Part shown: one piece after another, positions 4,253 to 29,504 of the stretch | Layout of the letters: each line of letters starts with the position of its first letter | Position numbering within the stretch: the first letter of the stretch is position 1 | From: a virus | Taxonomy: Duplodnaviria; Heunggongvirae; Uroviricota; Caudoviricetes | Length of the DNA: 30,317 nt | IMG/VR virus record: IMGVR_UViG_3300042301_002383 | Coordinates: 67,322-97,638 of that record | Strand: one strand, 5' to 3' | The notes under the pieces: model-generated | What the model was told of the DNA's origin: nothing | Seen by the model: the letters and a program-made list of their open reading frames with translations, nothing else | Database searches by the model: none | Made by a program: the position numbers and the translations under genes

Positions 4253-4263
4253 AATTACATTTA

Positions 4264-4959
4264 TTAAATACCAAAACGACCTCTTGTTGCTTGATACACC
4301 TCAGAAATTTCATAAGGATTTAAAACTCTATTATAAACTAAAAGATACCCAATATACGCGTTTGAATATTCACTATTACCTGGTGCATATCTACCTAAAC
4401 TAAGATTATATGGACCCTGGCTACCACTTTGATTTGAATACGTTGCAACTGAGTTTACATAAACAACATACTGATCATCTGATATATTACCAGTACCAGC
4501 CATAATTTTAAAACTAGTATCCTGTGGACCATTTTGAACAGGAGTTACCCAACCTTCTGCATAATAATTTTCAGTTGATGAACTCCACCAACCTAATAAC
4601 CAGTTATTGCTTTCTGCGGAAAAAATTCTACCTCCAACTGTTGCATATTTTGCAGCACCTATTACAGTATAGTTTGTTCCAGATAAATTTCCACAAGGAA
4701 CTGTGATATATTGATTTGAACCATTAGTTACTAATACCCCACCAGCTATTCCACTATTGAATGAAACACCATTAACTAAGGTCCCATTTGCACCATTACC
4801 ACTTAAATCATACCAAACGGTTCCACTACCGGGATATGAATTTATATCTGCAGCATCTAAATAACAAATAAGACTATCTCGAGTAATTCTTGTTTTAAAA
4901 ATACCCGTACTTGTTATATCCGATGAACTGATTACTTTACTATTAACGTCTAAAGGCAT
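4264..4959 (-). CDS. LamG-like domain protein (paralog)
   Basis: LICYLDAA..NSYPGSGTVWYDLSGNGANGTL.NG at the start and LLVYNRVLN..EI..VY...R.RFGI at the end match the framing of the neighbouring LamG gene. Confidence 0.8.
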   Translation of the reverse strand: MPLDVNSKVISSSDITSTGIFKTRITRDSLICYLDAADINSYPGSGTVWYDLSGNGANGTLVNGVSFNSGIAGGVLVTNGSNQYITVPCGNLSGTNYTVIGAAKYATVGGRIFSAESNNWLLGWWSSSTENYYAEGWVTPVQNGPQDTSFKIMAGTGNISDDQYVVYVNSVATYSNQSGSQGPYNLSLGRYAPGNSEYSNAYIGYLLVYNRVLNPYEISEVYQATRGRFGI

Positions 4960-13903: not shown

Positions 13904-16645
13904 TTACAATTTAAGTAATTTTTTAATTTCGTTAATTACACTTTCGGAACTAATTTCTTTTGAACATTCGAATTGTCTATCTGTACCTTTTTGGTCGGGA
14001 CACCAATTCCAATCTCCAGCATCAAAATCATGTCGATTCCAACAACTGTTACAAACATTTTTATTAATTACTCTATTAACTCCGATGAATGGTTCCGTAT
14101 ATATGTCTGTGAATCCTGATATTAAAACCACCGGCACATCCGCACCCCACGCCAACCAACTTAATCCACTACTAATTCCAATAAAAAGTTCTGACTCTTG
14201 TAATGTTTTTATAACATCCGTTAATAACCCCGATGGTTGTTGCACCACCCCTATTGGGTTTTTATTACCCATATATCCATCTTCTTCTCTAGATAACAAT
14301 CTTACCTCGTAACCATTTTCTTTTAGATAATCAACCACATCTTGCCAACCATTTGGGTTGTTCCAATATTTTAATTGTGCGGTCGAGTGAATACCGATAC
14401 AAACTCTCTTTTGTTTTTTCTTACCTAATTTTGGTAATTTTGTTCTTACCTCTTCATAATCTAAACCTAAAATATCCGAAGCGATTTTTGTTAATGGTTC
14501 CAATTTAGGGTCTGACGAGTGATGTTCGATATTAATATGTCTTGTTCCATCATTTTCGGTTTTGTAAAACATACCTAAACGATATAAGGAATATAAATTA
14601 TTTACATTGGTTCCAGGTTCAACAAATTCAATCTCTTTATATTGTTTTTTAAATAAGTCATTTTGGAATGTTGAGCATATCATTTTACAACCATGTTTCT
14701 TTCTGAAATTCTCAACATACGGGACAAATGCAATCGTGTCACCCAATGATTTAGATTCGAAAGCAACATAAACTCTTTTACCTTTTAAATCAATCCTATG
14801 TTCATAATAATAATCATTATCAATTCCCTTTATCACAATTGTCCAATCAACATAATACTTTATTGAGCTTCTTGACCAGTGATTACTTTTCAATTCAATG
14901 GAAAATTCGGTCTTCTTTGTTTTGTTATTAATGAACTGAACACTATATAATAATTGTTCATCATCTAATATTTCAATATATGGTCCATCAACAAAATGAA
15001 CATTTACTGACTTTGGTTTATGATTCTGTTTTATTTCTATATTTTTTGTTGTGTACTTATTTATCTCTCTACAATCTTCAGCACTTTCACCTAAGAACTC
15101 TTTATATACTTCGACCCCTTGATAATATACAATAACATTACTACCCTTTTTATATTGACCTAATGGTATTGTAAAAAACGCCTCTTTATGTAATGTGATA
15201 AATCGTTTATAGTCATTGTAAACCACCTCAAGTAGATAATCTTTGTCTGCCTTAATTTCTGAGAATCCAGAAATCAAATGTAAGTGAAGGTTGTGTTTCT
15301 CATCCACACCAATGTATGTTTGGAAATAAGCACCGTTTTTAATCATTCCATCTCTATTCCAAACAGCTTGTGTATTCAACTCATCATTGTTTGCAATGTA
15401 ATTGGTTACAAAGATATTGTTAGTGACATTTCTTAGTGCTGTTAAAAATACTCTTTCTAATTGCCAACCGTTTGGTTTGTTTTTAAAGTATTCTTCTTTG
15501 GTTTTGATTTGGTCAATTGCTTTAATTGCCACATCAGTTTTAACTGAGAAAATAAACGTTGCGCAATATTCACTAAAATTTGAGTTGGTTATACTGTTTT
15601 CGGAATATTCATATAACACAGCATCATGTCCGCCCAATCTTTCTAAAAATGCTTGTCTATATTGAACTGGATTTGGTAAGTTATCATATTCAAAGAAGTG
15701 AATATTTTTCTTACCCAAGTAGTTACAGAAATTAAATGAGTTCCTCAGGGTCTCCCATATAGCATAATCATGATGGAACGCATTTGCATTATCAATTCTA
15801 TGGTCACCCATATCACTCCATCTTCCGCTGGCAACTTGATATTCGTTGAATTCATGACTTAATAAAAGTGGGTTCTTTTTGTCAAATAAATAGTAGTCCA
15901 CCATCTTTTGAATCTCAGGTTTAATTGGATAATGTCCTGTTAATAATATATCAATATTATATGTCTTTAATATTTTAATTAACTCAATTAAATCATTCTC
16001 TTTTGATTCGTTATTTGGCCAACAATCAATTACAAAAATATCGTCCTTATAAGTTTCTTTACTAAGCTCAGGAACAATTTGTTGTGTCAAATATTTCTCA
16101 CCACCTTTGATACCATAAAAGTATAAATCATCTGGTTCATAACCTCTTTCAAAATGACCATCAATAAACGCCTCATTAAATGAAGGTATAATTTCTATAT
16201 CTTCTTTTTCTAAATTTTTATAATAGTCAGCCCATTCTTCACTAACATCTTCTAATAATGGTGCATCACATTGACTTGTTCTTCTTGTACCATGTTCTGG
16301 TCTACCATTAGCTGCACATGTGAATATGAACATACCACCTGGCTTTAACATTCTAATAACATTCTTAATGGTATCAGGATAATACATATCATGCTCAAAA
16401 ACTTCAGTAGATATGATTGTGTCAAAATATTCATCGGGAGCATCGTATAGATTACCCGCAGCAGCGACATCAACATTTCTTCCTTCTCCGATATCTATAC
16501 CAATGTAATTACAATCCTCGAATAGAAATCTATTTGAACCATTTAAATCTAATGACCCAATATCTAATACTTTTTTATTTTTAAAATATTCCGGATGTTT
16601 TTCTCTAACTCTAGAACAAAATTGTTGTTGTTGTAAATGTGCCAT
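13904..16645 (-). CDS. Fusion: class I SAM methyltransferase + unknown middle domain + TibC/AAH-type (GT9-like) protein O-glycosyltransferase
   Basis: N-terminal VLDIGSLDLNG...DTIISTEVFEH...LKPGG. C-terminal region (about 13904-15020) has KRVYVAFESKSLGDTIAF, FIGISSGLSWLAW, VVLISGFT and CNSCW-x12-CP-x8-FEC (C-x2-C-x13-C-x11-C), matching the autotransporter heptosyltransferase pattern. Confidence 0.8.
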   Translation of the reverse strand: MAHLQQQQFCSRVREKHPEYFKNKKVLDIGSLDLNGSNRFLFEDCNYIGIDIGEGRNVDVAAAGNLYDAPDEYFDTIISTEVFEHDMYYPDTIKNVIRMLKPGGMFIFTCAANGRPEHGTRRTSQCDAPLLEDVSEEWADYYKNLEKEDIEIIPSFNEAFIDGHFERGYEPDDLYFYGIKGGEKYLTQQIVPELSKETYKDDIFVIDCWPNNESKENDLIELIKILKTYNIDILLTGHYPIKPEIQKMVDYYLFDKKNPLLLSHEFNEYQVASGRWSDMGDHRIDNANAFHHDYAIWETLRNSFNFCNYLGKKNIHFFEYDNLPNPVQYRQAFLERLGGHDAVLYEYSENSITNSNFSEYCATFIFSVKTDVAIKAIDQIKTKEEYFKNKPNGWQLERVFLTALRNVTNNIFVTNYIANNDELNTQAVWNRDGMIKNGAYFQTYIGVDEKHNLHLHLISGFSEIKADKDYLLEVVYNDYKRFITLHKEAFFTIPLGQYKKGSNVIVYYQGVEVYKEFLGESAEDCREINKYTTKNIEIKQNHKPKSVNVHFVDGPYIEILDDEQLLYSVQFINNKTKKTEFSIELKSNHWSRSSIKYYVDWTIVIKGIDNDYYYEHRIDLKGKRVYVAFESKSLGDTIAFVPYVENFRKKHGCKMICSTFQNDLFKKQYKEIEFVEPGTNVNNLYSLYRLGMFYKTENDGTRHINIEHHSSDPKLEPLTKIASDILGLDYEEVRTKLPKLGKKKQKRVCIGIHSTAQLKYWNNPNGWQDVVDYLKENGYEVRLLSREEDGYMGNKNPIGVVQQPSGLLTDVIKTLQESELFIGISSGLSWLAWGADVPVVLISGFTDIYTEPFIGVNRVINKNVCNSCWNRHDFDAGDWNWCPDQKGTDRQFECSKEISSESVINEIKKLLKL

Positions 16646-17307
16646 TATCTTTTAGTTATTATAATAATTCCGTTAAGGAAATTTATCGATTCTATCTGTG
16701 TACCAATGTAATTGTATCCTTTAGCTTCAAATTGTTCAACTAACTTATCTTCTCTTCTGGCATTTGCATTATGAAAATTCTCCAATGTTTCACCAAAAAA
16801 ATTAACTTCATCTGTTATACCTTTAAAGTATTCCATCATAGTGCCTTCCAAGTATCTTCCGCCACCATAGTATGGTAAATAAGACGTACATACATCTTCT
16901 ACAACATAAACACCACCGGGTTTAATTGAATCCCATAAATGTTCAAATGAATATATTACATGTTCATTCATGTGCGAACCATCGTCTAGTATCATGTCAA
17001 ATGGTCCGTATTGTGTTTTAATTTTTGTTAAAAACTCTGCATCGAATTGAGAACCAATTTCAACTTTCATCCTATCTTCTTCATATTGTTTACAATCTGG
17101 GTTGATGTCAATACCAAGAATGTTTGACCTATAATAGAATTCTTTCCAAGTTCTTAAGGAATCTCCACCCAAGATACCAATTTCCATTATGTTTAAATTA
17201 TCATACCTATTGAATGGTAGATATTTCTCATACTTAACACAATAATTGTGTATTTCGGAAGACTTATCAGTTCCGTACTTTTTAGCTAAATCGTTTAATA
17301 TACTCAT
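16645..17307 (-). CDS. Class I SAM-dependent methyltransferase, sugar O-methyltransferase-like (MycE-like)
   Basis: KYGTDK...HNY...YE, MEIGILGG.S...W..F, GIDI, FDMILDDGSH, W..IKPGGVYVVED. Confidence 0.8.
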   Translation of the reverse strand: MSILNDLAKKYGTDKSSEIHNYCVKYEKYLPFNRYDNLNIMEIGILGGDSLRTWKEFYYRSNILGIDINPDCKQYEEDRMKVEIGSQFDAEFLTKIKTQYGPFDMILDDGSHMNEHVIYSFEHLWDSIKPGGVYVVEDVCTSYLPYYGGGRYLEGTMMEYFKGITDEVNFFGETLENFHNANARREDKLVEQFEAKGYNYIGTQIESINFLNGIIIITKR

Positions 17308-20024
17308 CTTGTAAAATATAACATTTGTAACGCATTATTTATACCCATAAACATAAGATATGAGTTAAATCCTAATTTCAACATTCTATCAATTAATTGT
17401 TGTCTCAATTCATCATCAAAATTAAAATGACTATGATGATATTCCATTGAGATGTTATTAACCTTCATTAAATTATCGTCACTAATTCCTTTTAAGGCGT
17501 GATGTTCAGCGCCTTCGATATCAATTTTAAGAAAATCAATATGGTCAACCAATCCAGTTTCAAACAAGTAATCTAACGTATACGTTCTTACTGGATAGTT
17601 TACTGTATTATTATGTGTACCAAATAAATTGGATCCACCTAAATGGGAACTCTCATATAATCTAAATTCTCCAATAGAATCCGCAGCACCCGCATTAAAT
17701 AAAATAGAACGAGGGTCAGCATTTAAGGATAATAATTTAAAATATCTTTTATCTGGTTCAAAAGATATAACTTTAGATGCACCTTGACTATACGCCCATC
17801 TATTGAATATACCGATGTTACCACCTAAATCAACAACAACATCACCTTCATTAATATTCTTTACTCTATCTTTATAATAATCAAGTAGATTAAAAATCTC
17901 ATGATAGATAGCCCTAAACCAACCAAATTTTTCCGCCACCTCTAATGTACCACCTTCATACTCCTTTATGTCCCCCAAGTTTTCAACATTGTATATTCCT
18001 GTATAAAAATATTCTGAGTTATAAAATGAATTGTCCTTTATAAATTTGATAAACTGAACCATTTTATCTGAGTTCTCGGAATTCTTATTCCCGTGGAAAT
18101 AAAGAATATCTTCTTTGTTCTTTGGTATGTATTGATAACCAAAAACTTTATCGAAGTTATATGGTCCTTTCTTATTCCAAAAAGTGTAGAAGTCTTCTAA
18201 TTGTTTTTGTGTTTGACCAGCATCACCATCATAAGATGATGTATCAAAATTAGATAATGGTAAATGTTTAGTGTAACCATGTTTCCATCTTAATGCGTTT
18301 TCAATACCCTCATCATTCCATATGAACAACCTATCGTAATCTTTTAAATCTGTTGTCTTATATGATTCAATTACTTGTTCAAACCACCCAACACAATTTC
18401 TATTATAAATGAACATACAAACATGCATGTATGGTGTTCTTTTTTGAATACCCCACTCTTTAGCTAACTCTTCATTAAATGATTGGTTCTTTGTTTGACC
18501 ATCTAATGTATAGTAACCATAAAATTCTTCTTGTCTATGAATGTCAGATAATGGATAGTTATCAATATCCTTAAAGTATTTTTCAATCGTATCGAAATTG
18601 TGATTAATCACCACATCACCATCAATCCAAACAAACTTATCATAGTCTTCATTAAACGCCTCAATACACGCATATTGTTTCCAATACCATCTATCATGTT
18701 CAGAATGTTTTGGTGGGTCAATTCTTCTTTTAATTACGTTCGGGTAATCAAATGGAACGTCACAATCAACACCATAAACAATTATTTTAGAATTTGAGAA
18801 TTCTAATACTGATTGTACTAGTTTCTCGATAACAGGCATATAACCGATATTACCCGTTGTTACAAATACAAATGGTTTCATTTTTTCTTCTAATAACATA
18901 GACGCATTTTTTGCAATAGTATCCCAATTAAAATCTTTATGTATTCTTTTTGCGTCTTCACGTGACGTAATCCACATCGCTGTTTTATAATCGTAAGCTT
19001 GACGCATTTTAAATTTTAAATCTTCCCAGTCCGGTTCACAATATTCTCCAGGGAAATCTTTATGTTCGTAATTTGCAGGAACTAACCCTTTAATTGATAC
19101 AGGTACACCTTTACCTTGGGTGAATTGTTGTTGTCCACCCCAATCTGCATATATCGATGGCGTTCCACATGCCATAGCTTCAATCAATGGTAAATTCCAA
19201 CCTTCACTTCTAGCACAAGAAACAAATACATCTGCCGTTTGCAAATACTTAACATATTCTTCTCTTGATGGGAAATTAACTATTTTAATATTCTTTGTGT
19301 TAATACCATAATGTTTGATTCTTTCTTCTGTTGTACTCAAACCATCTGATGAATATGGGTTTTCTACTGATGCAATTAACTCAACATCTGTTTCGTCTTT
19401 AAACTCTTCACCAAATGCTCGTAATATTTCTGTAGTCCCTTTTCTCCACTCCCATCTACCAAACAAAACAAACTGTGTCTTATCTTTTTTAGGATATTTT
19501 TCTAATGGTTTAAATGTTTCAACATCAACACCTTCAGGAACTACATATATCTTTTCTTTTGGATAACCTTGTTCAACTAAACAATCAAACTGCCATTGTG
19601 TTGGGACCCACACTTCATCAAAGTAAAATAATCTATTAAAGAAGTCATCTGGATAACGTGTCGATTCCCAAACATTGTATGCAATATTATAACCACTATA
19701 ATTGTCATAGAAATAGTAATGATTCATATCCATTAACACGATATTAATGTCCGGCGTAAAATCACCCTTATAACCATATATCGGTGAATCTCCGTGACTA
19801 CCGTCACTATTAATCAAGGTCTGTTGGATTAACATATCCTTCATTTCGTCGGTTATGTATGGTTCGTCATTATGTGGGGTATTATTCATACCTTTCCAAC
19901 CTTTCCCGATTGTTGCGTTCCTAACCTTTACAGTATGGTATTTGTTTAGGGCACAAAAAAAGGACCTAGCGTGATTAGCATATCCTGTGGTACCAATGAA
20001 TGGTGCGTGTGCAAGTATTTTCAT
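17304..20024 (-). CDS. Fusion: GT4 glycosyltransferase + putative GT-A-like domain + FkbM-family methyltransferase
   Basis: GT4 E-x7-E motif EGWNLPLIEAMACG; middle domain with WIDGD (DxD); C-terminal VVDLGGNIGIF, ISFEP, TLD, DFLKIDIEGAE. Confidence 0.85.
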   Translation of the reverse strand: MKILAHAPFIGTTGYANHARSFFCALNKYHTVKVRNATIGKGWKGMNNTPHNDEPYITDEMKDMLIQQTLINSDGSHGDSPIYGYKGDFTPDINIVLMDMNHYYFYDNYSGYNIAYNVWESTRYPDDFFNRLFYFDEVWVPTQWQFDCLVEQGYPKEKIYVVPEGVDVETFKPLEKYPKKDKTQFVLFGRWEWRKGTTEILRAFGEEFKDETDVELIASVENPYSSDGLSTTEERIKHYGINTKNIKIVNFPSREEYVKYLQTADVFVSCARSEGWNLPLIEAMACGTPSIYADWGGQQQFTQGKGVPVSIKGLVPANYEHKDFPGEYCEPDWEDLKFKMRQAYDYKTAMWITSREDAKRIHKDFNWDTIAKNASMLLEEKMKPFVFVTTGNIGYMPVIEKLVQSVLEFSNSKIIVYGVDCDVPFDYPNVIKRRIDPPKHSEHDRWYWKQYACIEAFNEDYDKFVWIDGDVVINHNFDTIEKYFKDIDNYPLSDIHRQEEFYGYYTLDGQTKNQSFNEELAKEWGIQKRTPYMHVCMFIYNRNCVGWFEQVIESYKTTDLKDYDRLFIWNDEGIENALRWKHGYTKHLPLSNFDTSSYDGDAGQTQKQLEDFYTFWNKKGPYNFDKVFGYQYIPKNKEDILYFHGNKNSENSDKMVQFIKFIKDNSFYNSEYFYTGIYNVENLGDIKEYEGGTLEVAEKFGWFRAIYHEIFNLLDYYKDRVKNINEGDVVVDLGGNIGIFNRWAYSQGASKVISFEPDKRYFKLLSLNADPRSILFNAGAADSIGEFRLYESSHLGGSNLFGTHNNTVNYPVRTYTLDYLFETGLVDHIDFLKIDIEGAEHHALKGISDDNLMKVNNISMEYHHSHFNFDDELRQQLIDRMLKLGFNSYLMFMGINNALQMLYFTR

Positions 20025-20045: not shown

Positions 20046-20060
20046 AACTTAAAAAGTCAA
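20032..20060 (-). promoter_or_regulatory. sigma70-like promoter TTGACT-N17-TATATT
   Basis: -35 at 20055-20060 and -10 at 20032-20037 with a 17-nt spacer. The ATG at 20024 follows the -10 by only 7 nt. Confidence 0.65.
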
Positions 20061-20863
20061 ATTAAATTTTGTTTAATTTTTGATAAATCATTCAAATAAC
20101 TTGAGAAGTTTTTAGTTATAAAATTGTGTAATTTATATGAATAGGTTTTATTATGGTTTGGTCCTGGATGTATGTCATCAACTCCATAATCCAAAAAAGG
20201 TCTTCCGTAATCACCATCGAATCTGTTAAATTCATTATAATCTTTTGGTATGTGGAAAAAACCATTCCATATCCAATTACATTTTTTAGATTCTAAAAAA
20301 TGCTTTATTAATAAATGATTTTTGTACCAATTTATAAAATCTTCATTATCATTTTGTAAATAAGTTAAATATTCTTGTGTTTTAACACCATCATCTGTTT
20401 CTTTCAAATATCCCCAAGATAATGTGGGCATAAAGGGTTCTATTCCCCCATCTTTAGTATATAATTCTCTTCTAAATGTATTTGTATACATTATTAATAC
20501 CAAATCTGGTTTAATTAAATCATAGTAACTCATTAAACATCTACATATAAAATCGTTACTTCTTCCTCCTGTTCCAAAGTTTAAATTTACCCCATTTTCA
20601 ATATGGTTACAAAATTGTGCCGGCCAAGTTTCATTATCATTGACACCGACTCCTTCCGTAATTGAACAACCTAATGACATAACTTTAAAACCTTCTTTTT
20701 TTATACTATCACCTCTAAATCCTAATTCATTATAGGTGTAGGTACATAGTCCTGTATTATCTCCACCGGAAGTTGTATATGTCTGATTTACTCTTTCTTT
20801 TAATGAATATTTGTAAGATGAGATTTCAAATCCTTTCGGGTTCCAATATTCTAATGGGTTCAT
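20057..20863 (-). CDS. SGNH/GDSL-like hydrolase or acyltransferase
   Basis: NELGFRGD, block I LGCSITEG, block II NFGTGGRSND, block V DDIHPG. Confidence 0.7.
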   Translation of the reverse strand: MNPLEYWNPKGFEISSYKYSLKERVNQTYTTSGGDNTGLCTYTYNELGFRGDSIKKEGFKVMSLGCSITEGVGVNDNETWPAQFCNHIENGVNLNFGTGGRSNDFICRCLMSYYDLIKPDLVLIMYTNTFRRELYTKDGGIEPFMPTLSWGYLKETDDGVKTQEYLTYLQNDNEDFINWYKNHLLIKHFLESKKCNWIWNGFFHIPKDYNEFNRFDGDYGRPFLDYGVDDIHPGPNHNKTYSYKLHNFITKNFSSYLNDLSKIKQNLI

Positions 20864-21360
20864 ATTAATTTATTTGTTTCTGTTTTTATATGTTCATTTT
20901 GTAAAAACCAAAGTAATGAGTATCGTTCACCTTCTAAAATTGGTGCTATTTCATGCTCAATTCCTACATCAAATATATAAGTGTTTCCAATAATTTTATT
21001 TAAAATTATTTCATTTGGATTATACAATGTAAAATCACCACCTTCAAAGTTATCATTTAATAAAACACCAACCGCATATAATCTGTTATCTCTAATATCA
21101 TTGTGTTTTCCAAACCAATCACCTTTCGTAAATTTATGCAAATGTATCGTTTTTTTTATTGTTCTAATTTCAATGTTTGTTTCCCTTTCCACAAAATCCT
21201 TCAACTTATCAAATAACCAATTGGTTTCTAATGAATAATCAATTGGTTGTGAATTATATTTTCTATCCCCCATTCTCCAATTTGTAATATGTTGATTGGA
21301 TTCTAATATAATGGACTCACACTCCTCTTTACTAAATAAGATTTTTTCTTTTAATATCAT
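20860..21360 (-). CDS. 2OG-Fe(II) oxygenase (prolyl hydroxylase-like)
   Basis: KHND...LLNDNFEGGDF...IEHEI.PI..GERYSL. Confidence 0.85.
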   Translation of the reverse strand: MILKEKILFSKEECESIILESNQHITNWRMGDRKYNSQPIDYSLETNWLFDKLKDFVERETNIEIRTIKKTIHLHKFTKGDWFGKHNDIRDNRLYAVGVLLNDNFEGGDFTLYNPNEIILNKIIGNTYIFDVGIEHEIAPILEGERYSLLWFLQNEHIKTETNKLI

Positions 21361-21370
21361 TTTTCTTAAT

Positions 21371-21913
21371 TTATAAAAATTTTCTTTTTGTTTTCCTCCT
21401 ATTTCTTAACCTATTTGTATTATCTAATAGGTGTTCATACTTTGTACTTGTTAAACCAATATAATCTTTTATTCTTTGTATATCCTCTTTGGTGTCGTAT
21501 ATCCCTTCATATGTAACTTTTAACTGAATTTCTTTTATTGTATTAAAATAGTCAATTGTATTATTTACCCATTCCTCAAAATATTTTATGTCTATTTCGT
21601 TTTCTTTTATCCATTCATCACTTACTTCATACCCATTTCTCCATTCCTTTCGTTGTACTGCTTTGGTATGTGATATTGAACACTCTCTCGCATCCTCACG
21701 CGTTAATCCAATTATCTTATCCCAATTTGTTAAATCAATATCCATTCTATTTTCAATTTCACTAATATTATATTTTACCACAATATTGTTTCCTTCAATG
21801 GATTGATTTGTGTATATTGGTTCATGTATCATTTTATGTTCTAGCTCCATAGACAACCATTCATTCAATTGATATCCACCACTTCTTGATAATGCAATAA
21901 TTAAAATTCTCAT
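21371..21913 (-). CDS. Sulfotransferase-like protein
   Basis: N-terminal IIALSRSGG...L......HEP (5'-PSB-like loop), IIGLTRED...S, VTYE.IY. Confidence 0.55.
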   Translation of the reverse strand: MRILIIALSRSGGYQLNEWLSMELEHKMIHEPIYTNQSIEGNNIVVKYNISEIENRMDIDLTNWDKIIGLTREDARECSISHTKAVQRKEWRNGYEVSDEWIKENEIDIKYFEEWVNNTIDYFNTIKEIQLKVTYEGIYDTKEDIQRIKDYIGLTSTKYEHLLDNTNRLRNRRKTKRKFL

Positions 21914-22950
21914 ATTAACGTTTTATTTGTAGTATCAATAAACTCATATAGATTATGAAATAGATTTGTGTTTTTCCACACTTTATTAAACTCTCTTTTA
22001 AATAATTCATGTTCTGGATGATTTGTATTCCAAACTTGTTTTAATTTAAACTCGCCCTCTGAAAATGTGCCCCAATTAGTTATCTTACCGAAAAACACAT
22101 TTACTTTCTTACCAAAAATAGAATACATTAAATTATAAAATGTTTCCATTTCGGTATAATTTGTATCTTGTACCACAAATGAAGTTTTAACACTTATTGG
22201 TAATGTATTAATGAATTTTAAATTGTTTATTAGATTTTCCCAATTACCACCTATTCTTGTTTTATTTTCATAGGTGTCTTTTGTACCTGCATCTATACTA
22301 ATTTCACAACTATGAACATATTTATGTATATTTGGCATACTATCCCACATTTCTTTATTCCACATTGATGCGTTTGTATGAAGATGTATTGATTGCAGTT
22401 TTGGATATTTTTTAGGATTAAAATTTCTTAGATAATTTCTAAACCCAACCGAAACAAACGGGTCTCCTGATCCTGTTATATATAGTGATTTCACATTTGC
22501 AGAATAATGAGTATCAATTTCTTCAATTGTTTTCTCTATCCGTTTAATTCCATTACTGTTTTCAACAATTAAATCTACCCTACAAGATGGACATTTATAA
22601 TTACAAGTTCTATCAAAGTTCATCATTAACATATCAGGAGTGTTATTTTCTATAATAGTATTATTAATATTTGAATTTGATTTTAAAGTAATTGGACCAT
22701 TTGCAACCCCATAATTTACTAATTTACTTAAAAATGGACAAAGTTCTTTATTACAATACTTAAATGAACCATCTAACATACTTTCTCTAATCTCTTGAAC
22801 AGGTTCACTATTCCATATTTCATTTAATTTATATTCATCTCTTTTAAATGAAACATTTAACCAAGATGGACAACACAAAAAATATTGATTATTGTGTATT
22901 TCCAATGAGTTGAATGGTACACCACATATGTAATTTTTTAAATCTACCAT
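21910..22950 (-). CDS. Radical SAM protein with N-terminal SPASM/twitch-like Cys domain
   Basis: CNYKCPSC (CxxxCxxC), ITGSGDP, LHTN, ISIDA. N-terminal CGVPF...LCC...IWNS...IR..M..G....C....CP. Confidence 0.85.
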   Translation of the reverse strand: MVDLKNYICGVPFNSLEIHNNQYFLCCPSWLNVSFKRDEYKLNEIWNSEPVQEIRESMLDGSFKYCNKELCPFLSKLVNYGVANGPITLKSNSNINNTIIENNTPDMLMMNFDRTCNYKCPSCRVDLIVENSNGIKRIEKTIEEIDTHYSANVKSLYITGSGDPFVSVGFRNYLRNFNPKKYPKLQSIHLHTNASMWNKEMWDSMPNIHKYVHSCEISIDAGTKDTYENKTRIGGNWENLINNLKFINTLPISVKTSFVVQDTNYTEMETFYNLMYSIFGKKVNVFFGKITNWGTFSEGEFKLKQVWNTNHPEHELFKREFNKVWKNTNLFHNLYEFIDTTNKTLI

Positions 22951-22959
22951 ATTTTATTA

Positions 22960-23430
22960 TTAATGAAACCAAAAATTTAATGCGTATCGTGTTCCTTCTG
23001 TAACTGGTTTTACTTCGTGATATTGATGACCGCCATCAAATACAACACCATCTCCCTTTTTTAAATTTACAACTTTATTATTTATATATGTATCTCCACC
23101 TATAAACCCATTGGATAACAAAATTATTGATGTTTTATTTTTTGCACCATCTACATGTCTTCGTAACCACCTACCATCCTTATATTCGGTCATTTGTAAC
23201 CACATCGTTTTGTAATTAGGGAAATTATTTTTACTCAACTCATTTATAACTGTATTATAAATTTCTTCATTCCACTTTTCTCTTTCTAGTAGTTGAATAC
23301 CTTGTTGACCCCATATCAACCAAACAAACCAGTTTGTTTTATGGGATTCACTTAAAACACATTCATTCTTAATTTTATCTATTAAATTATCACAAAATTC
23401 GTTGGGTAAAAGATTTTTATATATTTCCAT
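22960..23430 (-). CDS. 2OG-Fe(II) oxygenase
   Basis: EYKDG..LRRHVD...LS.GF.GG.T...KKGDGVVF....YHEVKPV.EGTRYAL. Confidence 0.85.
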   Translation of the reverse strand: MEIYKNLLPNEFCDNLIDKIKNECVLSESHKTNWFVWLIWGQQGIQLLEREKWNEEIYNTVINELSKNNFPNYKTMWLQMTEYKDGRWLRRHVDGAKNKTSIILLSNGFIGGDTYINNKVVNLKKGDGVVFDGGHQYHEVKPVTEGTRYALNFWFH

Positions 23431-23994
23431 TTAAAATAAAGTTTTTTCTTTTTTTACTTTATCCTTTATTTGAAATCCTAATGTTAAAGTTATTCTTGGT
23501 TTTTCTCCTATTACCGGCATACTGCCATGTTCGACCCTACCAGCAACACACCTCCAAACCATTCTTTCTTTTAACTCATTAATCTTACCATTATATATTG
23601 AGTGTCCGCCTTCATGTGGATATGATAGTATTATGTTATATCTAACATGTGTATATCCATCTAAATTTGAATCACTATGTAAATGAATTGAACCCCCTTC
23701 TTTATTAATACCAATTGCGTCTTCAAACATTGGGTCTAATATCCAATCATTAATTTTTTCTACTTCAATTACCCTATCCTTTATTTTTTTTACCAAATCT
23801 AATGGTGAATTTAATATTTTTGTTAATACACCGATTTGTCTAGAACCATATGGCGCATTTATGGTATGACTATTAGTTGTGTTTATTTGAAATAGATGTG
23901 AATTAGAATTTGTCCAAAATAAAAGATTTTCTTGTTCTTCATTTGTTATGAATTCTTCATAACCATATGTGTCATTCAAAATTATTTTTTTCAT
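23431..23994 (-). CDS. 2OG-Fe(II) oxygenase
   Basis: GGSIHLHSD...RYNIILS.P.EGG...EHGSMPV.G..PRITL. Confidence 0.8.
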   Translation of the reverse strand: MKKIILNDTYGYEEFITNEEQENLLFWTNSNSHLFQINTTNSHTINAPYGSRQIGVLTKILNSPLDLVKKIKDRVIEVEKINDWILDPMFEDAIGINKEGGSIHLHSDSNLDGYTHVRYNIILSYPHEGGHSIYNGKINELKERMVWRCVAGRVEHGSMPVIGEKPRITLTLGFQIKDKVKKEKTLF

Positions 23995-24722
23995 AATAAT
24001 GTTTTATTTATTTTTCTTTGTTCAAACTCTTTATAAAGATTATCATATTTTTGTTTAAAATTATCATTGATTTCTATTACACACTCAAATTGTTTACTTG
24101 AGTTTATTTTTTCCATTTTAAAATCCTTATTTAATTTTTTTGATACCCAATTTTCTAATTCCACCAAATTATCAATATCAAACCAAATAATATTTGGATT
24201 ACTATTTGTGAGTTCAACTACTGGTGTAAATAATATATCTAACATATTTTTAGTATAGGACTCTTTTTTTGAAATTTTTAACTTAGTTAAAAAATTATCA
24301 ATAACTTTAGACCTATTTTCCAAATTATAAATGTCATTTGATGTGATATTATCAAACATATCATTAGTTGTTAACTTTGAAAATTTATCAGCAATATCAA
24401 ATTTATTTTTTCTGTATAATTCATCTATAATGTGTTTCCATAAAGATAAAAATCTATCATAATTGTTTCTTCTTATTGAAATAATTTGATTGTTTATACC
24501 AAATTTTTCTTGTAATATATATAATGGTTCATGTGCGTGTACTAAACTATCCGCCAATTCTTCATTATTCATTTTTTCCCATTCATTTATTTTAATCAAC
24601 TGATTATCAAGGTTTGAATTGAAATGTTCTACTGGTATCTTGTTTTTTAGACACGTAATCATAAATGATGTTGAAGCACATCTTGGTAAACTTATAAAAA
24701 TAAATTTTTTATCTATTAACAT
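23991..24722 (-). CDS. Sulfotransferase family 2-like protein
   Basis: FIFISLPRCASTS (5'-PSB) and IRRNNYDRFLSLW (3'-PB). Confidence 0.75.
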   Translation of the reverse strand: MLIDKKFIFISLPRCASTSFMITCLKNKIPVEHFNSNLDNQLIKINEWEKMNNEELADSLVHAHEPLYILQEKFGINNQIISIRRNNYDRFLSLWKHIIDELYRKNKFDIADKFSKLTTNDMFDNITSNDIYNLENRSKVIDNFLTKLKISKKESYTKNMLDILFTPVVELTNSNPNIIWFDIDNLVELENWVSKKLNKDFKMEKINSSKQFECVIEINDNFKQKYDNLYKEFEQRKINKTLL

Positions 24723-25402
24723 TATATTAAATGATTTCCCTTTTCAAATCTCTTTTCAAAATTTTCCCAAATGAATGATTTTAATTCGTCATTTACAATT
24801 ATCTTATTTGGTCGTTTGGATGTTTTATTTGTGTGATTTATAATTAATGTTTCTCCAAATCTATCTTCTATAAAATCTGTAAATTTATCAATTTCACTAA
24901 TGTCAAATTCGTAGGTACATTTTTTATTAGATTTGAAAAATCTTTGGGAAAGTAAAGTGTCAACCGCACCTCTAATCGGTAATTCACATTCAAAATTTTC
25001 TTTTACTAGTTTAAACCAGCACTTCCTAAATCCATCGTGATCGTTACTCAACAAATGTAATTTATTTAAAAAATCGGTATTAAATGTTTTATAGATATAT
25101 TCATTATCAACATCCTCCCATTTACGAACAGCAGTGTATTCGCTTTCAAATTCTATATTATCCCAAACAAAATTTAGGGCACTTAACCATCTAGATAACC
25201 AATCACGTGTTATACAAACAGTTTCTTTATCCCCCCATCGTTCTAAACATTGATTCACCGGTACGTGAAAATGCCGTGTTTTGTCATTTGGTACAAATAT
25301 TTCTAAATTTAATTTTGAGTTTCTTAATGATTGTTCAATGGAATAACTGGCACACTTTGGGATAGAAACCCAAATGAGTTCATTATTAATTAAATGAGAC
25401 AT
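24722..25402 (-). CDS. Sulfotransferase family 2-like protein
   Basis: WVSIPKCASYSI, ITRDWLSRWLSA, SQ..F, and a C-terminal N...K-type end. Confidence 0.75.
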   Translation of the reverse strand: MSHLINNELIWVSIPKCASYSIEQSLRNSKLNLEIFVPNDKTRHFHVPVNQCLERWGDKETVCITRDWLSRWLSALNFVWDNIEFESEYTAVRKWEDVDNEYIYKTFNTDFLNKLHLLSNDHDGFRKCWFKLVKENFECELPIRGAVDTLLSQRFFKSNKKCTYEFDISEIDKFTDFIEDRFGETLIINHTNKTSKRPNKIIVNDELKSFIWENFEKRFEKGNHLI

Positions 25403-25404
25403 TT

Positions 25405-25707
25405 TTATATAATTGTTTTAGTTGATTTAAACCCTTTTAAATATTCATCTTCAACTTGTTTCCACTTTCCTAACGGACACGATCCCTTTTTATCTAAATA
25501 TGTTTTGGGTGTGTATACTTTACCTTTTAATGGGCAACCACATTCTCCACATTTTAATGACCATTCTTTATTTTTATTTTTAAAAAATTCTTGTTTAGAT
25601 GGGCATTCTAAACAAATATCAAACCTATCATCTGCCAATTTTTTTAATTCATTAGAGTGTATAAGTGTATTGTACCACGCGATTGAAATTTCTTTGAGAT
25701 CTATCAT
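25405..25707 (-). CDS. Small six-Cys metal-binding protein (DUF6171-like)
   Basis: R..ICLECP...CGECGCPL..K.......CPLGKW. Confidence 0.7.
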   Translation of the reverse strand: MIDLKEISIAWYNTLIHSNELKKLADDRFDICLECPSKQEFFKNKNKEWSLKCGECGCPLKGKVYTPKTYLDKKGSCPLGKWKQVEDEYLKGFKSTKTII

Positions 25708-25708
25708 A

Positions 25709-26281
25709 TTATAAGAGTGTTTTTTTATAACTACTTTTTTCTTTTATTGCAACCCAATTAACTAATGTATATCTATTACCATTTTTAACTACCGTTACTC
25801 TATGATCGATATCAGATAAAAAAACGATAGTGTTACCTATTCCCTTTTCTACTTTCATTATTGAACCATCGGATAATTTTAATTCTAAATCACCTTCTTC
25901 ATATTCATCATTTAGTTGTATAACTAAAGAACAATATCTTTCGTGTTGTGTAACTTCTTTTCCTGTAATATCTTTATGCCAAACAAAAAAATCACCATCT
26001 TTATATTCTGTGAATTGGAATTGACTATTTTTGTAATCTAAATCGAATCCTTTTATGGTGATATTTTCATCTAATAATTTAGATATTTTTTCTAATATAA
26101 ATGGAAATTTTTGATAATATGGATAAAATACCACATTTGATTTTCTGGTACCATAAGTTGGGGAATCATAACCAATGGTTTTTGCAGGATTTAATATTAA
26201 ATTTTCTAATGTGAAATTCAGAACTAAATCACATTCTTCTTTTGTTAATAAATTTGATACGGATTTATATGTAAACGACAT
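25709..26281 (-). CDS. 2OG-Fe(II) oxygenase (PKHD/prolyl 4-hydroxylase-like)
   Basis: QFTEY..GDFFVWHKD...SLVIQLN.EYEEGDL...G.TIVF.S.IDHRV..V..GNRYTLV.W. Confidence 0.9.
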   Translation of the reverse strand: MSFTYKSVSNLLTKEECDLVLNFTLENLILNPAKTIGYDSPTYGTRKSNVVFYPYYQKFPFILEKISKLLDENITIKGFDLDYKNSQFQFTEYKDGDFFVWHKDITGKEVTQHERYCSLVIQLNDEYEEGDLELKLSDGSIMKVEKGIGNTIVFLSDIDHRVTVVKNGNRYTLVNWVAIKEKSSYKKTLL

Positions 26282-26287
26282 AACTTT

Positions 26288-26818
26288 TTATATTAATGAT
26301 TTTGTTTTTTTTGTTATATAGTTAACCGGCATCCAATGTAGAAAAAATTGTAATACTCTTTGGGTTTCGTCGCATTCTAAAGGATTTCTCCAATGAACGT
26401 TTTTATCAGCATCAAATAATAATATTCCGTCGCCTATATTTGTGTGATGTGAGTATTCTTCACCACCTATTTTAGCAAATAATGGCCATTCTTTGTTTAT
26501 TGTTGACTCTAAACATATTGAAATTGTTACACTTATATCTGTTCTATCTATATGTTTTGTTAAAAATGCACCATTGAAATACTCCCTAACATATGTGTTC
26601 ACATTATCTAAATGTTCAATTCCATTATTGAATTCTAACACTTTTGGTTTTAATTTTTCCATATATTTATCAAAATTATATGAAGGTCTAAATCCAAAAG
26701 AAGCATTCGTTTCTACCATTTTATCACTAGAAGAGTTATTTACCTTTTCAATATCAAATTGTTTAGATAAAAATACACATTCCTCCTTTGAAAGAATATT
26801 TGGAATGAAGTAAATCAT
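26288..26818 (-). CDS. 2OG-Fe(II) oxygenase-like protein
   Basis: YVREY..G..L.KHIDR...SVTISI......WPL...GDGIL.....HWR.PL. Confidence 0.75.
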   Translation of the reverse strand: MIYFIPNILSKEECVFLSKQFDIEKVNNSSSDKMVETNASFGFRPSYNFDKYMEKLKPKVLEFNNGIEHLDNVNTYVREYFNGAFLTKHIDRTDISVTISICLESTINKEWPLFAKIGGEEYSHHTNIGDGILLFDADKNVHWRNPLECDETQRVLQFFLHWMPVNYITKKTKSLI

Positions 26819-26836: not shown

Positions 26837-26926
26837 TTAACTATTTGCAGTTACAATTAAATTGCCAATGGTAGTTAAAGTTGTGTTCAGTACGTTGATT
26901 TCTGTGTTTGTTATTATAGTTGTCAT
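26837..26926 (-). CDS. 29-aa Thr/Asn/Ile-rich peptide, below the ORF-track threshold
   Basis: Manual translation: MTTIITNTEINVLNTTLTTIGNLIVTANS*. It fills the gap between the ATP-grasp-Hint gene and the first oxygenase and has an A-rich 5' context. Confidence 0.55.
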   Translation of the reverse strand: MTTIITNTEINVLNTTLTTIGNLIVTANS

Positions 26927-26951: not shown

Positions 26952-28451
26952 TTAACTCCAACATATTCCTTGATAAGCATTACAAGTCGGGTTACCGTAT
27001 GGACCGGAACAATATGGTTCGTTTTTTGGACAAGTCGGACAAGCGCCCCCCCAACAACATCCCACTGGACAACTAGGTCCATTATGTTCAATCGAAACAA
27101 ACGATTCGTTATTTGTTGATGTGGTCTTAGTTAAAAATAAGTGTGTTCTTTCTACTGAAATAAACCAACCGGTAAATACTTTTTTAATTTGTGTAACAGA
27201 TACTACTGTTTTTCTAACAAAATCCATTAACCCATCCGTTGTGTTTAACAATAAAACCGCATCTCCAGATACCACATCAAATAAATTTTCAAATTGAACT
27301 TCATTATTTCTTTCAATCAAATACGAAGAAACTCCCGTATCCTCCCAAGTACTATTATCGTCAAAAGTTAATTGATAAAAATATGATAATTTATTAACTC
27401 TTTTTAATGCATTAATTTTGTTTGTTGAATATGTTGTACCACTTAGTAATGTTTCATACGTTATTCCAAAATTTGCGGTATAGGATGCATTATCTGTGCC
27501 ATTTGGATTTGGTATATCAATTGTTTTAATTACATCATCAACATTTAAATCTAATGCGGTTTTAAATGTGCCGTCAGCCATTTCTACTAAATCAGTATCT
27601 AACAGTTTTGGTAACCAGTTACTATTTACAGAAGTTGTATAACTATCTCTATATTCTGAATTTATCTCATAAGTTTCTGAGTTATATTCTACATCAGTAA
27701 AAAATATATTTTCATTTAATTTAGTATATTGTCCTATATGAATTGATTGTAACGTCGGTGGGTATAATATGTTTAAACTTCTAACTACCTTTATGTGACC
27801 TTCGTAACTATTAGTGGTGTTACAGTAGTTTTCCATTAAAAAATATTCAGATGTAACATTTTCTAAAACCACATCTAATTCTTCTTGTGTTGTTACTTTA
27901 TAAAATTTAGGATAAACCTCTTTATCATAGCCAGGATACCTTGATTTTAGAATAAAATTAGGGTGTACACCATTATCTGTTATTGTTGTTATAGTATTAA
28001 TTAAAGTGTTGTTTTCATCTATGTAAGCAAATTGTGAACCGAACGATTGGGATTGGATAAGTTTCATAAATTCAACCTTATCTCTACAATAGGTATCATC
28101 TACCAACGCAGTTGTATCATATGCACTTCTGATAATTAATGTTTCATCATTATCCTCTATAACTGGGATAGTAATCGACAAACCACCAATTGCGTGGTAT
28201 TCATATGTAACGGAACTTCCTGTGTAGTGTGTTTCTAATGTTTTATGAAAATATTGAATATCCCCAACGTAATGTATATTTTGGAAATTATTATCAGTAA
28301 CAAATTGGTATAAATTTGTTAAATCCAAACAATCCACATCATCTTCAACTTTGGATGCGTTATCCCAACCAACTGCGGTGTTTATTTCGATGGGTTTTAA
28401 ATTACCATCCTGATCGTACATAAAGTCCGAACCTATTAATACTGTTCTCAT
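26952..28451 (-). CDS. Fusion: circularly permuted ATP-grasp-like domain + Hint domain + Cys-rich C-terminal peptide
   Basis: N-terminal GSDFMYDQDGNLKPIEINT (D...ExN motif placed first) with later FILKS..G......YFLMENY. Residues 282-457 read KLLDTDLVEMADG.FK...DL.VDD.I...ISVE.THLFL...IEHN. They are followed by 42 aa with 8 Cys. Confidence 0.7.
   Translation of the reverse strand: MRTVLIGSDFMYDQDGNLKPIEINTAVGWDNASKVEDDVDCLDLTNLYQFVTDNNFQNIHYVGDIQYFHKTLETHYTGSSVTYEYHAIGGLSITIPVIEDNDETLIIRSAYDTTALVDDTYCRDKVEFMKLIQSQSFGSQFAYIDENNTLINTITTITDNGVHPNFILKSRYPGYDKEVYPKFYKVTTQEELDVVLENVTSEYFLMENYCNTTNSYEGHIKVVRSLNILYPPTLQSIHIGQYTKLNENIFFTDVEYNSETYEINSEYRDSYTTSVNSNWLPKLLDTDLVEMADGTFKTALDLNVDDVIKTIDIPNPNGTDNASYTANFGITYETLLSGTTYSTNKINALKRVNKLSYFYQLTFDDNSTWEDTGVSSYLIERNNEVQFENLFDVVSGDAVLLLNTTDGLMDFVRKTVVSVTQIKKVFTGWFISVERTHLFLTKTTSTNNESFVSIEHNGPSCPVGCCWGGACPTCPKNEPYCSGPYGNPTCNAYQGICWS
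27081..27608 (-). other. Hint (intein-like) domain predicted competent only for C-terminal cleavage
   Basis: Block A-like LLDTDLVEMADG has Lys where the Cys1/Ser1 nucleophile aligns. Terminal His-Asn is intact (27081-27086), the +1 residue is Gly, the length is 176 aa and there is no endonuclease insert. Confidence 0.65.
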
Positions 28452-28469: not shown

Positions 28470-28478
28470 ATAAATACC
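28470..28478 (-). promoter_or_regulatory. GGTATTTAT motif upstream of the ATP-grasp-Hint gene
   Basis: Lies 18 nt upstream of the ATG at 28451 and has the same core as the motifs at 1233 and 12789. Confidence 0.45.
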
Positions 28479-28693
28479 TATTTTTTATCTTTTAATCCAA
28501 ATTTTATCCATCTATACCATATCCTTTCGTGAATATAATATTGTATTGGTTTATATATTAATTCAGCCACGCCAAATGCTGTACCTACCTTTATTGACCC
28601 ACTAATCCACCACATTAATAAGAACCCTATTAAGGTGCTTACGATTCGATATGAAACGGTTTTGGCTATGTGTCTCTTACGTTCTACCATCAT
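28478..28693 (-). CDS. DUF2061-type small membrane protein
   Basis: HIAKTVSYRIVST...hydrophobic...YYIHERIW. This family is often found with APS kinase genes. Confidence 0.75.
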   Translation of the reverse strand: MMVERKRHIAKTVSYRIVSTLIGFLLMWWISGSIKVGTAFGVAELIYKPIQYYIHERIWYRWIKFGLKDKK

Positions 28694-29073
28694 TATCCTT
28701 TTGTTTGATCATATTTAATTTCACCATCAGGTGTCATGTGACCAGTTCTAATGGCTGTTCCGCTTATTACCGCCACATCCGCTGGTGGCTCATGATAAAT
28801 TACATCATAACCAACACCTCTACCGTAATTAACCGATTCAATATCCGGAATAATTGATAATAAAATCTTATCAAAATTCTCATTAAAAAATGGTTCTTGA
28901 ATTAACATTTGAAAAACCTCTTGGGCTGTCTTTGGATTGTTCTCATCAACTTCAACATCTCTAATAGCCACCCATACGTTCTTATCTTGGTCCATTTGTT
29001 GGCGAATCAACCATTCGTGACCTTTGTGCCAATTTTGCCACCTACCGATGTACATTGCATATTTCTTACTCAT
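28693..29073 (-). CDS. HUP-fold (cytidyltransferase-like) nucleotidyltransferase
   Basis: YIGRWQNWHKGH (HxGH) and a C-terminal ISGTAIR. Confidence 0.8.
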   Translation of the reverse strand: MSKKYAMYIGRWQNWHKGHEWLIRQQMDQDKNVWVAIRDVEVDENNPKTAQEVFQMLIQEPFFNENFDKILLSIIPDIESVNYGRGVGYDVIYHEPPADVAVISGTAIRTGHMTPDGEIKYDQTKG

Positions 29074-29504
29074 AATGATAATTTTTTTAACAGTTCATAA
29101 TATGAATCCGTTTCGTTTTTTATTGTTGTGTCTATATCTATAAAATTTTCTAATGGGGGTTCATATTCCTCAACGTGGAATTCATTCCTACCCCTATCCT
29201 CTGTAGTGTGAACATAAATCTCAACAACTGATGTGCTGAACTTAAACGATTCTCTTTGGTCTCTATATGGTGAAACTAAGGATACAATAACATTGTGACC
29301 CTTACTATGCATAAATTGTGCAATATATTGTGCTCTTTGAATGTTTAATCTTCTTCCTGTGATGGAATAGTCTTTATTCTTAAAGATGTCTCTTAGGTCA
29401 TCCCCATCGATGTGAATAACCTCATCTTTAGGGAAATATTCCACCAAGTATTTCGCTAGGGTTGTTTTACCTGCACCGGGCTGTCCTGTTAACCAATATA
29501 TCAT
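29070..29504 (-). CDS. cysC: Adenylyl-sulfate (APS) kinase
   Basis: YWLTGQPGAGKTT (P-loop), IDGDDLR, YS..GR..NI, VSLVSPY...R, YEPP. Confidence 0.85.
   Translation of the reverse strand: MIYWLTGQPGAGKTTLAKYLVEYFPKDEVIHIDGDDLRDIFKNKDYSITGRRLNIQRAQYIAQFMHSKGHNVIVSLVSPYRDQRESFKFSTSVVEIYVHTTEDRGRNEFHVEEYEPPLENFIDIDTTIKNETDSYYELLKKLSL

Follow-up and report, generated by a model that had tools for sequence, protein, structure and literature searches.

The stretch of DNA analyzed here (the window) comprises 30,317 nucleotides (nt) of the IMG/VR record IMGVR_UViG_3300042301_002383, a virus of the Caudoviricetes, and forms the final 30 kb of a viral contig of 97.6 kb (33% guanine plus cytosine, GC; CheckV completeness 29%). 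Between positions 20057 and 26818 it carries a block of eleven open reading frames (ORFs), g01 to g11, all on the minus strand, with a GC content of 23–29% and tight or overlapping junctions (stop-to-next-start distances of −4 to +32 nt). The encoded proteins include 2-oxoglutarate (2OG) oxygenases, a radical S-adenosylmethionine (SAM) enzyme, sulfotransferases, and a hydrolase, and nearly all of them share a short C-terminal ending, hereafter the tag; in transcription order the endings run from KSLI in g01 to QNLI in g11 (Table 1). These ORFs, endings, and distances are all as an earlier reading of the same DNA, made from its letters alone (the sequence-only reading), had given them. Upstream of the block stand a micro-gene and u1, a gene whose product combines a ligase-like domain with a Cys-rich peptide, and which accompanies the tag in related phages.

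Table 1. Genes and ORFs of the window; block genes are in transcription order, and lengths are in amino acids (aa) unless stated otherwise.
Feature	Positions	Strand	Length	Assignment and match	C-terminus
g01	26288..26818	-	176	2OG-oxygenase-like; phrog_2954 at 1e-17	KSLI
g02	25709..26281	-	190	2OG-Fe(II) oxygenase; PF13640 at 5e-12	KTLL
g03	25405..25707	-	100	Cys-rich Zn-ribbon-like protein	KTII
g04	24722..25402	-	226	sulfotransferase-like; same BLAST family as g05	NHLI
g05	23991..24722	-	243	sulfotransferase; phrog_3347 (galactose-3-O-sulfotransferase) at 1e-4	KTLL
g06	23431..23994	-	187	putative 2OG oxygenase; sole match phrog_13746	KTLF
g07	22960..23430	-	156	2OG-Fe(II) oxygenase; PF13640 at 8e-10	FWFH (no tag)
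g08	21910..22950	-	346	radical SAM enzyme; PF04055	KTLI
g09	21371..21913	-	180	possibly Stf0-like sulfotransferase; family member weakly matches PF09037	RKFL
g10	20860..21360	-	166	2OG-Fe(II) oxygenase; PF13640 at 1e-5	NKLI
g11	20057..20863	-	268	SGNH/GDSL-like hydrolase; weak DUF6071, relatives match Lipase_GDSL	QNLI
micro-gene	26837..26926	-	29 codons	directly after u1	...ANS (no tag)
u1	26952..28451	-	499	ATP-grasp ligase (1-276), Hint ending HN457, Cys-rich peptide (458-499)	no tag
u2 and u3	28478..29073	-	71 and 126	u3 nucleotidyltransferase/kinase-like	both families 0% tagged
APS kinase	29070..29504	-		PF01583 at 8e-17	family 0% tagged
GT4+FkbM, MT, MT+GT9	13904..20024	-	906, 220, and 913	glycosyl- (GT) and methyltransferases (MT), downstream of the block	no tag
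large protein	5008-12765	-	2585	probably fibre or receptor-binding; GC 0.41-0.45; long open frames on both strands
Laminin_G_3 protein	3434-4959	-		probably fibre or receptor-binding	...RGRFG(I/V)
Laminin_G_3 protein	12839-13903	+		probably fibre or receptor-binding	...RGRFG(I/V)
ORF antisense to g03	25394-25714	+	106	most likely a shadow ORF	...SIIL in relatives

The shared ending on the block enzymes is real and far beyond chance. Calling 144 non-overlapping ORFs on the whole contig separates the 11 block proteins from 133 others, and the strict motif K[TS][LI][ILF]-COOH ends 6 of the former and none of the latter (Fisher test, 4e-8). The shorter form L[ILF]-COOH ends 8 of 11 compared with 0 of 133 (4e-11), while the last two residues are both Leu, Ile, or Phe in 10 of 11 compared with 7 of 133. 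Within the block proteins, the strict motif occurs six times, each time at the C-terminus and never inside a sequence, with a composition-based expectation of 0.00046 per position. This enrichment, together with the terminal-only position, excludes an artefact of low-GC codons, and the absence of the tag outside the block, which the sequence-only reading had asserted, holds for the strict motif across the contig. As such, the possibility that the same C-terminal frequency prevails throughout an AT-rich genome fails. In a complete 335.6-kb relative (G001, 388 ORFs), four of six strict matches fall in the homologous cluster; the other two are an SNF2 helicase, probably a chance match, and a protein of 432 aa whose gene lies upstream of the cluster by about 22 kb.

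Relatives gathered with the radical SAM protein, one sulfotransferase, and u1 as queries yield about 150 viral loci on contigs of up to 335 kb. Across these, orthologues of each tagged block gene keep a tag, and those of the untagged g07 stay untagged. For example, 82 of 82 g08 orthologues are tagged, all 21 g01 orthologues end in KSLI, KSLL, or KTII, g04 orthologues end in N-x-L-I, and the g05 and g09 families are 97% and 90% tagged, the latter mostly with KNII, KDII, or KNLI. The SGNH family of g11 is tagged in 61–67% of its members. An independent collection of 5.8 billion proteins gives the same picture for the radical SAM enzyme: among the matches listed (76–90% identity), 120 of 120 end in x-x-L-I or x-x-I-I, 105 of them in KTLI, and the four residues preceding the tag vary freely. 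The alternative that orthologues keep the folds and lose the tails can thus be set aside.

Specific assignments vary in strength. A cyanophage homologue of g01 is annotated as an oxoglutarate/iron dioxygenase. The fold of g06 is the one given by the sequence-only reading and is probable. Fold searches with g08 return only generic radical SAM matches (viperin, BlsE, SuiB, and SkfB), and no subfamily is assigned. PHROG profiles applied to six large proteins from other parts of the contig gave no lead on taxonomy. The g07 protein ends at the last strand of its fold and is consistently untagged in mid-block (17 orthologues also end in FWFH), so it may act on a different substrate. The plus-strand ORF that lies over g03 recurs in relatives and is most likely a shadow ORF of an AT-rich coding strand, not a gene.

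The composition of the tag was derived from 368 tails, non-redundant at the DNA level. Counting the last residue as −1, position −4 is mainly Lys (217) or Asn (86), −3 is Thr (144), Ser (70), Lys (62), or Asn (42), −2 is Leu (292) or Ile (61), and −1 is Ile (279) or Leu (77), while −7 to −5 are Lys-rich. Codons in the tail match the background of the same genes (Thr ACA 0.50 vs 0.47; Leu TTA 0.70 vs 0.66), and Ser is encoded by both TCA (0.44) and AGT (0.31), which are not interconvertible by one synonymous change. The sole deviation is the final Ile, with ATA at 0.65 against a background of 0.46, a skew explained by the overlapping ATG that ATA plus TGA provides for the next gene.

Within orthologous families, the entropy of the last two to three residues is far below that of the linker, and most changes at these positions are synonymous. 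Specifically, synonymous to non-synonymous changes in the radical SAM family are 19:9, 16:4, and 11:4 at −3, −2, and −1, compared with 6:34 at −7 and 1:25 at −5. The tail is also kept where the downstream gap is long, i.e. in six of six sulfotransferases with gaps of 101–300 nt and in 11 of 11 cases for g03, and 23 tagged genes face a convergent gene. Given the background codon usage, the synonymous changes, and the indifference to downstream spacing, selection acts on the protein, as the sequence-only reading had proposed when it called the signal protein-level rather than DNA-level. The predicted model of g08 has a pLDDT (predicted local distance difference test) below 50 at tail residues 338–340 and 342–346; modelled as disordered, this tail is probably exposed, in keeping with a flexible linker. 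As in a docking motif, the tag is under purifying selection, its linker is relaxed, the tail is predicted by the model to be disordered, and the tag is independent of fold.

BLAST families in the loci are bimodal, with nearly all members tagged or none. Grouping by permissive single linkage gives 11 superfamilies that are at least 70% tagged, 46 that are at most 10% tagged, and 9 intermediates. Tagged proteins include several groups of 2OG-Fe(II) oxygenases, radical SAM enzymes, two sulfotransferase types, SGNH/GDSL and SET-domain proteins, a short-chain dehydrogenase/reductase-like protein, a flavin Trp halogenase (PF04820, 1.8e-88), the Zn-ribbon-like protein of 90–100 aa, and at least six families without any Pfam match. 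That the tag is common to unrelated folds is thus borne out on a larger scale, by at least 11 unrelated superfamilies. Proteins of the same operon without it are the adenylyl sulfate (APS) kinase, a carbamoyltransferase, HSP20, large glycosyl- and methyltransferases, fibre proteins, u2, and u3. The 906-aa and 220-aa families downstream of the block are 0% tagged and the 913-aa family is mostly untagged; u3 matches phrog_10255 and phrog_395. From its sequence, the APS kinase is predicted to supply 3′-phosphoadenylyl sulfate (PAPS) for the sulfotransferases. The tag thus marks enzymes that typically act on amino-acid side chains, not those of cofactor supply or sugar transfer.

The u1 protein has a predicted model of good quality (pLDDT 82) in which residues 459–499 are disordered. 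Its N-terminal part adopts an ATP-grasp amide-ligase fold closest to YgiC (Z 8.7) and GspS (Z 8.6), with YgiC, GspS, and glutathione synthetase spanning Z 8.7–8.2, and resembles RimK, LysX/ArgX, and TTL-like enzymes more weakly. The C-terminal domain is a Hint/intein fold (Z 15 to the NpuDnaB intein, BIL2, and hedgehog Hog domains) in which H456 and N457 are invariant. What follows the HN pair is hypervariable, usually 30–60 residues with 6, 8, 10, or 12 Cys (8 in the window), a layout such as would be expected for peptide release by Asn cyclization at HN457. Many u1 peptides of the IEHN type have a C-P-K motif in common, and some family members carry extensions of 100–1200 aa instead or end at HNK. 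A conserved u1 body with a hypervariable peptide, adjoining radical SAM, 2OG, sulfotransferase, halogenase, and SET enzymes, is what one finds around precursors of peptides that are made ribosomally and then modified post-translationally (RiPPs). A homologue of the micro-gene (24–30 aa, ending in ...IGxLI(V/I)xxNS) follows u1 by 9–51 nt in about 71 of 73 loci, and its invariant end is a candidate carboxylate substrate of the predicted u1 ligase.

The u1 family counts 255 representatives at 50% identity. A tblastn search with u1 finds no homologue in 50,697 deposited phage genomes, where the block (blastn) and the radical SAM protein (tblastn) have no match either. Among 185,579 prokaryotic species genomes, u1 occurs on one 2-kb contig (CAIWXP010000069.1) of a metagenome-assembled genome of Diapherotrites (DPANN), probably a mis-binned viral fragment. 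One 211-kb contig, IMGVR_UViG_3300042892_005961, has two u1 loci about 38 kb apart (L140 and L167), whose u1 proteins are 52% and 47% identical to that of the window.

Linkage of tag and u1 was scored in 73 u1 loci, on same-strand neighbours within 10 kb. Tagged genes make up 74% of those in the first 2 kb downstream of u1, a share that drops to 52% and then 39% in the bins that follow and equals the background rate of 3% at 8–10 kb on either side. At least two tagged neighbours lie within 6 kb in 72 of the 73 loci, and of the tag-less protein families, u1 alone occurs in all 73 (the micro-gene is too short for that ORF set). The g03 family (90–100 aa) occurs in 66 of 73, is 88% tagged, and usually adjoins u1 directly. 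Contigs with u1 homologues at only 27–31% identity still have tagged neighbours (KSLM, KEII, YKLL, NKII, NTII, and KTLI). The radical SAM loci that lack u1 all break off within about 5 kb upstream, which leaves no observed case of a tag in the absence of u1.

Minimal versions of the cluster (L183, L158, and L184) read: tagged g03, u1, micro-gene, tagged sulfotransferase, and an untagged protein of about 140 aa (fam23). In G006 (CheckV 100% complete), the minimal cluster is tagged g03, u1, and tagged sulfotransferase. Two cultured cyanomyoviruses, Sf-FP1 and S-T4, carry Trp halogenase and 2OG enzymes in clusters beside fibre genes, with about 28% identity to the enzymes of the window; in these two clusters there is no tag and no u1 homologue was found. 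Since the same folds occur there without either, the tag belongs to the u1 system, not to the folds.

Tentatively, we regard the ending as a docking motif that recruits swappable tailoring enzymes to a receptor, likely the u1 precursor. This reading rests on genomic linkage, given the peak of tagged genes immediately downstream of u1, and we infer both the docking function and the role of u1 as reader from that linkage and from the conservation of the motif. A complex prediction of u1 with the radical SAM enzyme, for a single pair run without controls, scores 0.30 against a mark of 0.32 and is neutral as to binding. The motif [K/N]-[T/S/K/N]-[L/I]-[I/L]-COOH, following a variable Lys-rich linker, would act as a short linear docking motif that marks enzymes acting directly on the peptide substrate and brings them to a common receptor. 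The likeliest receptor would be the folded u1 body, possibly together with the 29-residue micro-peptide, and the substrate would be the hypervariable Cys-rich peptide that u1 carries, freed by Asn cyclization at HN457. Such an arrangement would invert the usual RiPP logic, i.e. a large "leader" (u1) would read one tag borne by every enzyme, and any tagged enzyme swapped into the cluster would work at once. Free exchange of cassettes between close relatives would then be explained, because any tagged enzyme fits. The wider proposal of a plug-and-play system, in which the u1 scaffold reads a universal four-residue C-terminal tag and any enzyme that acquires the tag is recruited to the Cys-rich peptide, is one we hold a little more loosely still, as a possibility.

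Since the tag travels with the gene that joins ATP-grasp, Hint, and Cys-rich peptide, recruitment to a peptide-precursor scaffold is likelier than a generic degradation or packaging address. The sequence-only reading had suggested a common docking, packaging, or degradation address that gathers the enzymes into a complex or compartment. Of that suggestion, recruitment to the u1 scaffold is the part we favour, while nothing points to a compartment or to packaging in virions.

Several points weigh against docking on u1. The case for u1 as the candidate receptor is one of genomic linkage, and tag and u1 co-occur largely within a single broad lineage of phages, whose common descent inflates the counts. 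Some cluster enzymes do without the tag, namely g07 and, in the SGNH family, about one-third of the members. Across the u1 lineages sampled the tag stays essentially unchanged, and this lack of covariation with u1 suits a conserved host factor as well as it does a conserved local receptor. In G001, two GDSL-like proteins with tag-like ends (L102:10283-10915, ...NKII; L102:16526-17224, ...KKII; at 310–317 kb) lie 22–30 kb beyond the u1 cluster, and it is possible that they are tagged enzymes outside it. Finally, the ligase clade of u1 acts on C-terminal carboxylates of peptides, yet the ...NS end of the micro-peptide is a better candidate for such a reaction than are the enzyme tails.

The main rival, which we consider unlikely, is a C-terminal degron that removes oxidizing and radical enzymes on a timer, read by a phage ClpC-like unfoldase with ClpP or by host ClpXP, ClpAP, or FtsH. 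ClpX recognizes the C-terminal RRKKAI of MuA and the LAA of ssrA. The MuA type is reportedly the C-motif 2 of ClpX described by Flynn et al. in 2003, which a Lys-rich stretch before two aliphatic residues resembles. ClpP is present in seven of eight related records (G001–G003 with E of about 1e-57, also G004, G005, and G008, and a divergent form in G007), and G001 and G004 encode a 670-aa, two-ring ClpC-like unfoldase without the N-domain. The unfoldase gene of G001 (L113:1201-3213, minus strand; AAA, AAA_lid_9, UVR, AAA_2, and ClpB_D2-small) lies about 100 kb from ClpP (L084:1363-2040, plus strand). However, the complete genome of G006 has the tagged minimal cluster while lacking ClpP, hence the phage need not have a Clp system of its own, and G007, complete with terminal repeats, has only the divergent ClpP (1.6e-27) and no AAA_2 unfoldase. 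A degron also leaves unexplained the confinement of the tag to u1-linked enzymes, with the APS kinase, the glycosyl- and methyltransferases, and the rest of the 133 contig proteins untagged. Conservation also extends to the polar positions −4 and −3, suggestive of a specific pocket.

That the tail is an address read elsewhere in phage or host, bringing the enzymes together without involvement of u1, seems to us rather improbable; the reader would be a chaperone, a module that binds C-termini (PDZ-like or otherwise), or a factor of packaging or of a compartment. Class I PDZ ligands have Ser or Thr at −2 and a hydrophobic residue at 0, and the tag fits this rule in part: Thr or Ser stands two residues before the last in 214 of 368 tails, and the last residue is Ile or Leu in 356, in a set whose selection pattern allowed Ile, Leu, Phe, or Met there. 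The sequence-only reading had pointed to this pattern, which suits about 60% of the tails; the reader it calls for was not found, as PDZ (PDZ_6 and PDZ_2; PF17820, PF13180) and S41/Tsp (Peptidase_S41; PF03572) families have no match in G001–G003, three related genomes that include the complete G001, nor has the contig of the window, searched with PF17820 only. A chaperone might be suspected because 26 of the 73 loci have an HSP20 gene no more than 10 kb from u1, but the adjacent terminal hydrophobics of the tag differ from the I-x-I motif of small heat-shock proteins, which was rejected on its spacing. Moreover, the tagged proteins are soluble oxygenases and other enzymes dependent on Fe/2OG, SAM, or PAPS, without obvious use in a virion, and a remote reader does not predict the tight positional linkage to u1.

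Far less probable is that the tail carboxylate is itself a substrate of the u1 ATP-grasp ligase, joined to an amine, for example that of the conserved Lys or the N-terminus newly formed when the peptide is released. The motif must stand at the very C-terminus, and the relatives of the u1 N-domain named above activate carboxylates, often at the C-terminus of a protein or peptide. Nevertheless, it is hard to see what biochemical purpose capturing a dozen enzymes covalently would serve, and the invariant C-terminus of the micro-peptide is a more natural carboxylate donor. A feature of the nucleotide-level junctions (a ribosome-loading or coupling sequence, or a site for cassette recombination) or a low-GC codon artefact has next to no standing: the low GC, the tight junctions, and the ATA skew of the final Ile would suit it, but codons at −4 to −2 are at background with both kinds of Ser codon in use, tail changes are mostly synonymous, the tail persists at gaps of 100–300 nt or larger and before convergent genes, and the same AT-rich contig has many equally tight junctions elsewhere and not one strict-motif ending among them. 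Other candidates were rejected outright, i.e. a sliding-clamp-binding tail (no Q-L-x-L-F pattern), a membrane-targeting amphipathic helix (tail too short), and a type I secretion signal (no transporter present).

Farther downstream, putative fibre genes adjoin the enzyme cluster, an arrangement also seen in the aquatic myophages' "host recognition cluster". A hypervariable cluster of this name has been described in aquatic T4-like myophages, including radical SAM cassettes and with no description of the tag (PMC7029224). In the window, a gene for a 2585-aa protein is flanked by genes for two Laminin_G_3 proteins, and the long open frames on both of its strands indicate that the large protein has repeats.

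Short address peptides shared by the termini of different proteins are known; the context and the presumed polarity here are not, and neither the tag nor the u1 layout is described in the literature searched. The cargo peptides of encapsulins and bacterial microcompartments likewise place a short terminal peptide, after a flexible linker, on unrelated enzymes that go to one receptor. However, the encapsulin peptide is rich in Gly, Ser, and Leu and the microcompartment peptides are amphipathic helices, whereas the tag is of the K-T-L-I type and its presumed partner is a peptide precursor, not a compartment. Conserved neighbours out to 10 kb from u1 include no shell-like family in the 73 loci, where shell families were not sought with hidden Markov models.

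Another parallel is RiPP biosynthesis, in which a shared element sends unrelated tailoring enzymes to one ribosomal substrate and the precursor combines a conserved part with a hypervariable core. In RiPPs, the leader is on the substrate and the RiPP recognition element (RRE) on the enzymes; here the enzymes bear the element, and a folded "leader" of 457 residues would be its presumed reader. Class I PDZ ligands and the substrates of Prc/Tsp/Ctp proteases resemble the tag in having x-[S/T]-x-hydrophobic-COOH and in needing a free carboxylate, but differ in that no PDZ or S41 match occurs in the phage genomes searched, about 40% of the tails have Lys or Asn in place of Ser or Thr, and the enzymes are cytoplasmic. 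The ClpX C-motifs (LAA of ssrA; RRKKAI of MuA) share a basic stretch before an aliphatic C-terminus, and some of these phages encode Clp components, yet the tag is pathway-specific rather than proteome-wide and is present in a complete genome without ClpP. Lastly, the capsid-targeting sequence of T4 is a short, phage-encoded terminal peptide on unrelated proteins, but it is N-terminal, is cut by the prohead protease, and marks virion cargo, while the tag is C-terminal and on metabolic enzymes.

If the tag is a recruitment signal, it would represent a new organizing principle, with one tag on many enzymes in place of one leader read by enzyme-borne domains. It would provide a sequence rule for listing the members of the pathway, and the six or more tagged families without a Pfam match would become candidates for new peptide-modifying chemistries; should the reading be true, the tag could serve as a marker for finding entirely new families of peptide-modifying enzymes. 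The four residues and their Lys-rich linker would likewise be a portable handle for engineering enzyme recruitment. The tag would also make a large, abundant, and wholly uncultured phage system approachable by experiment, one in which 1,796 database relatives are counted for the radical SAM family alone.

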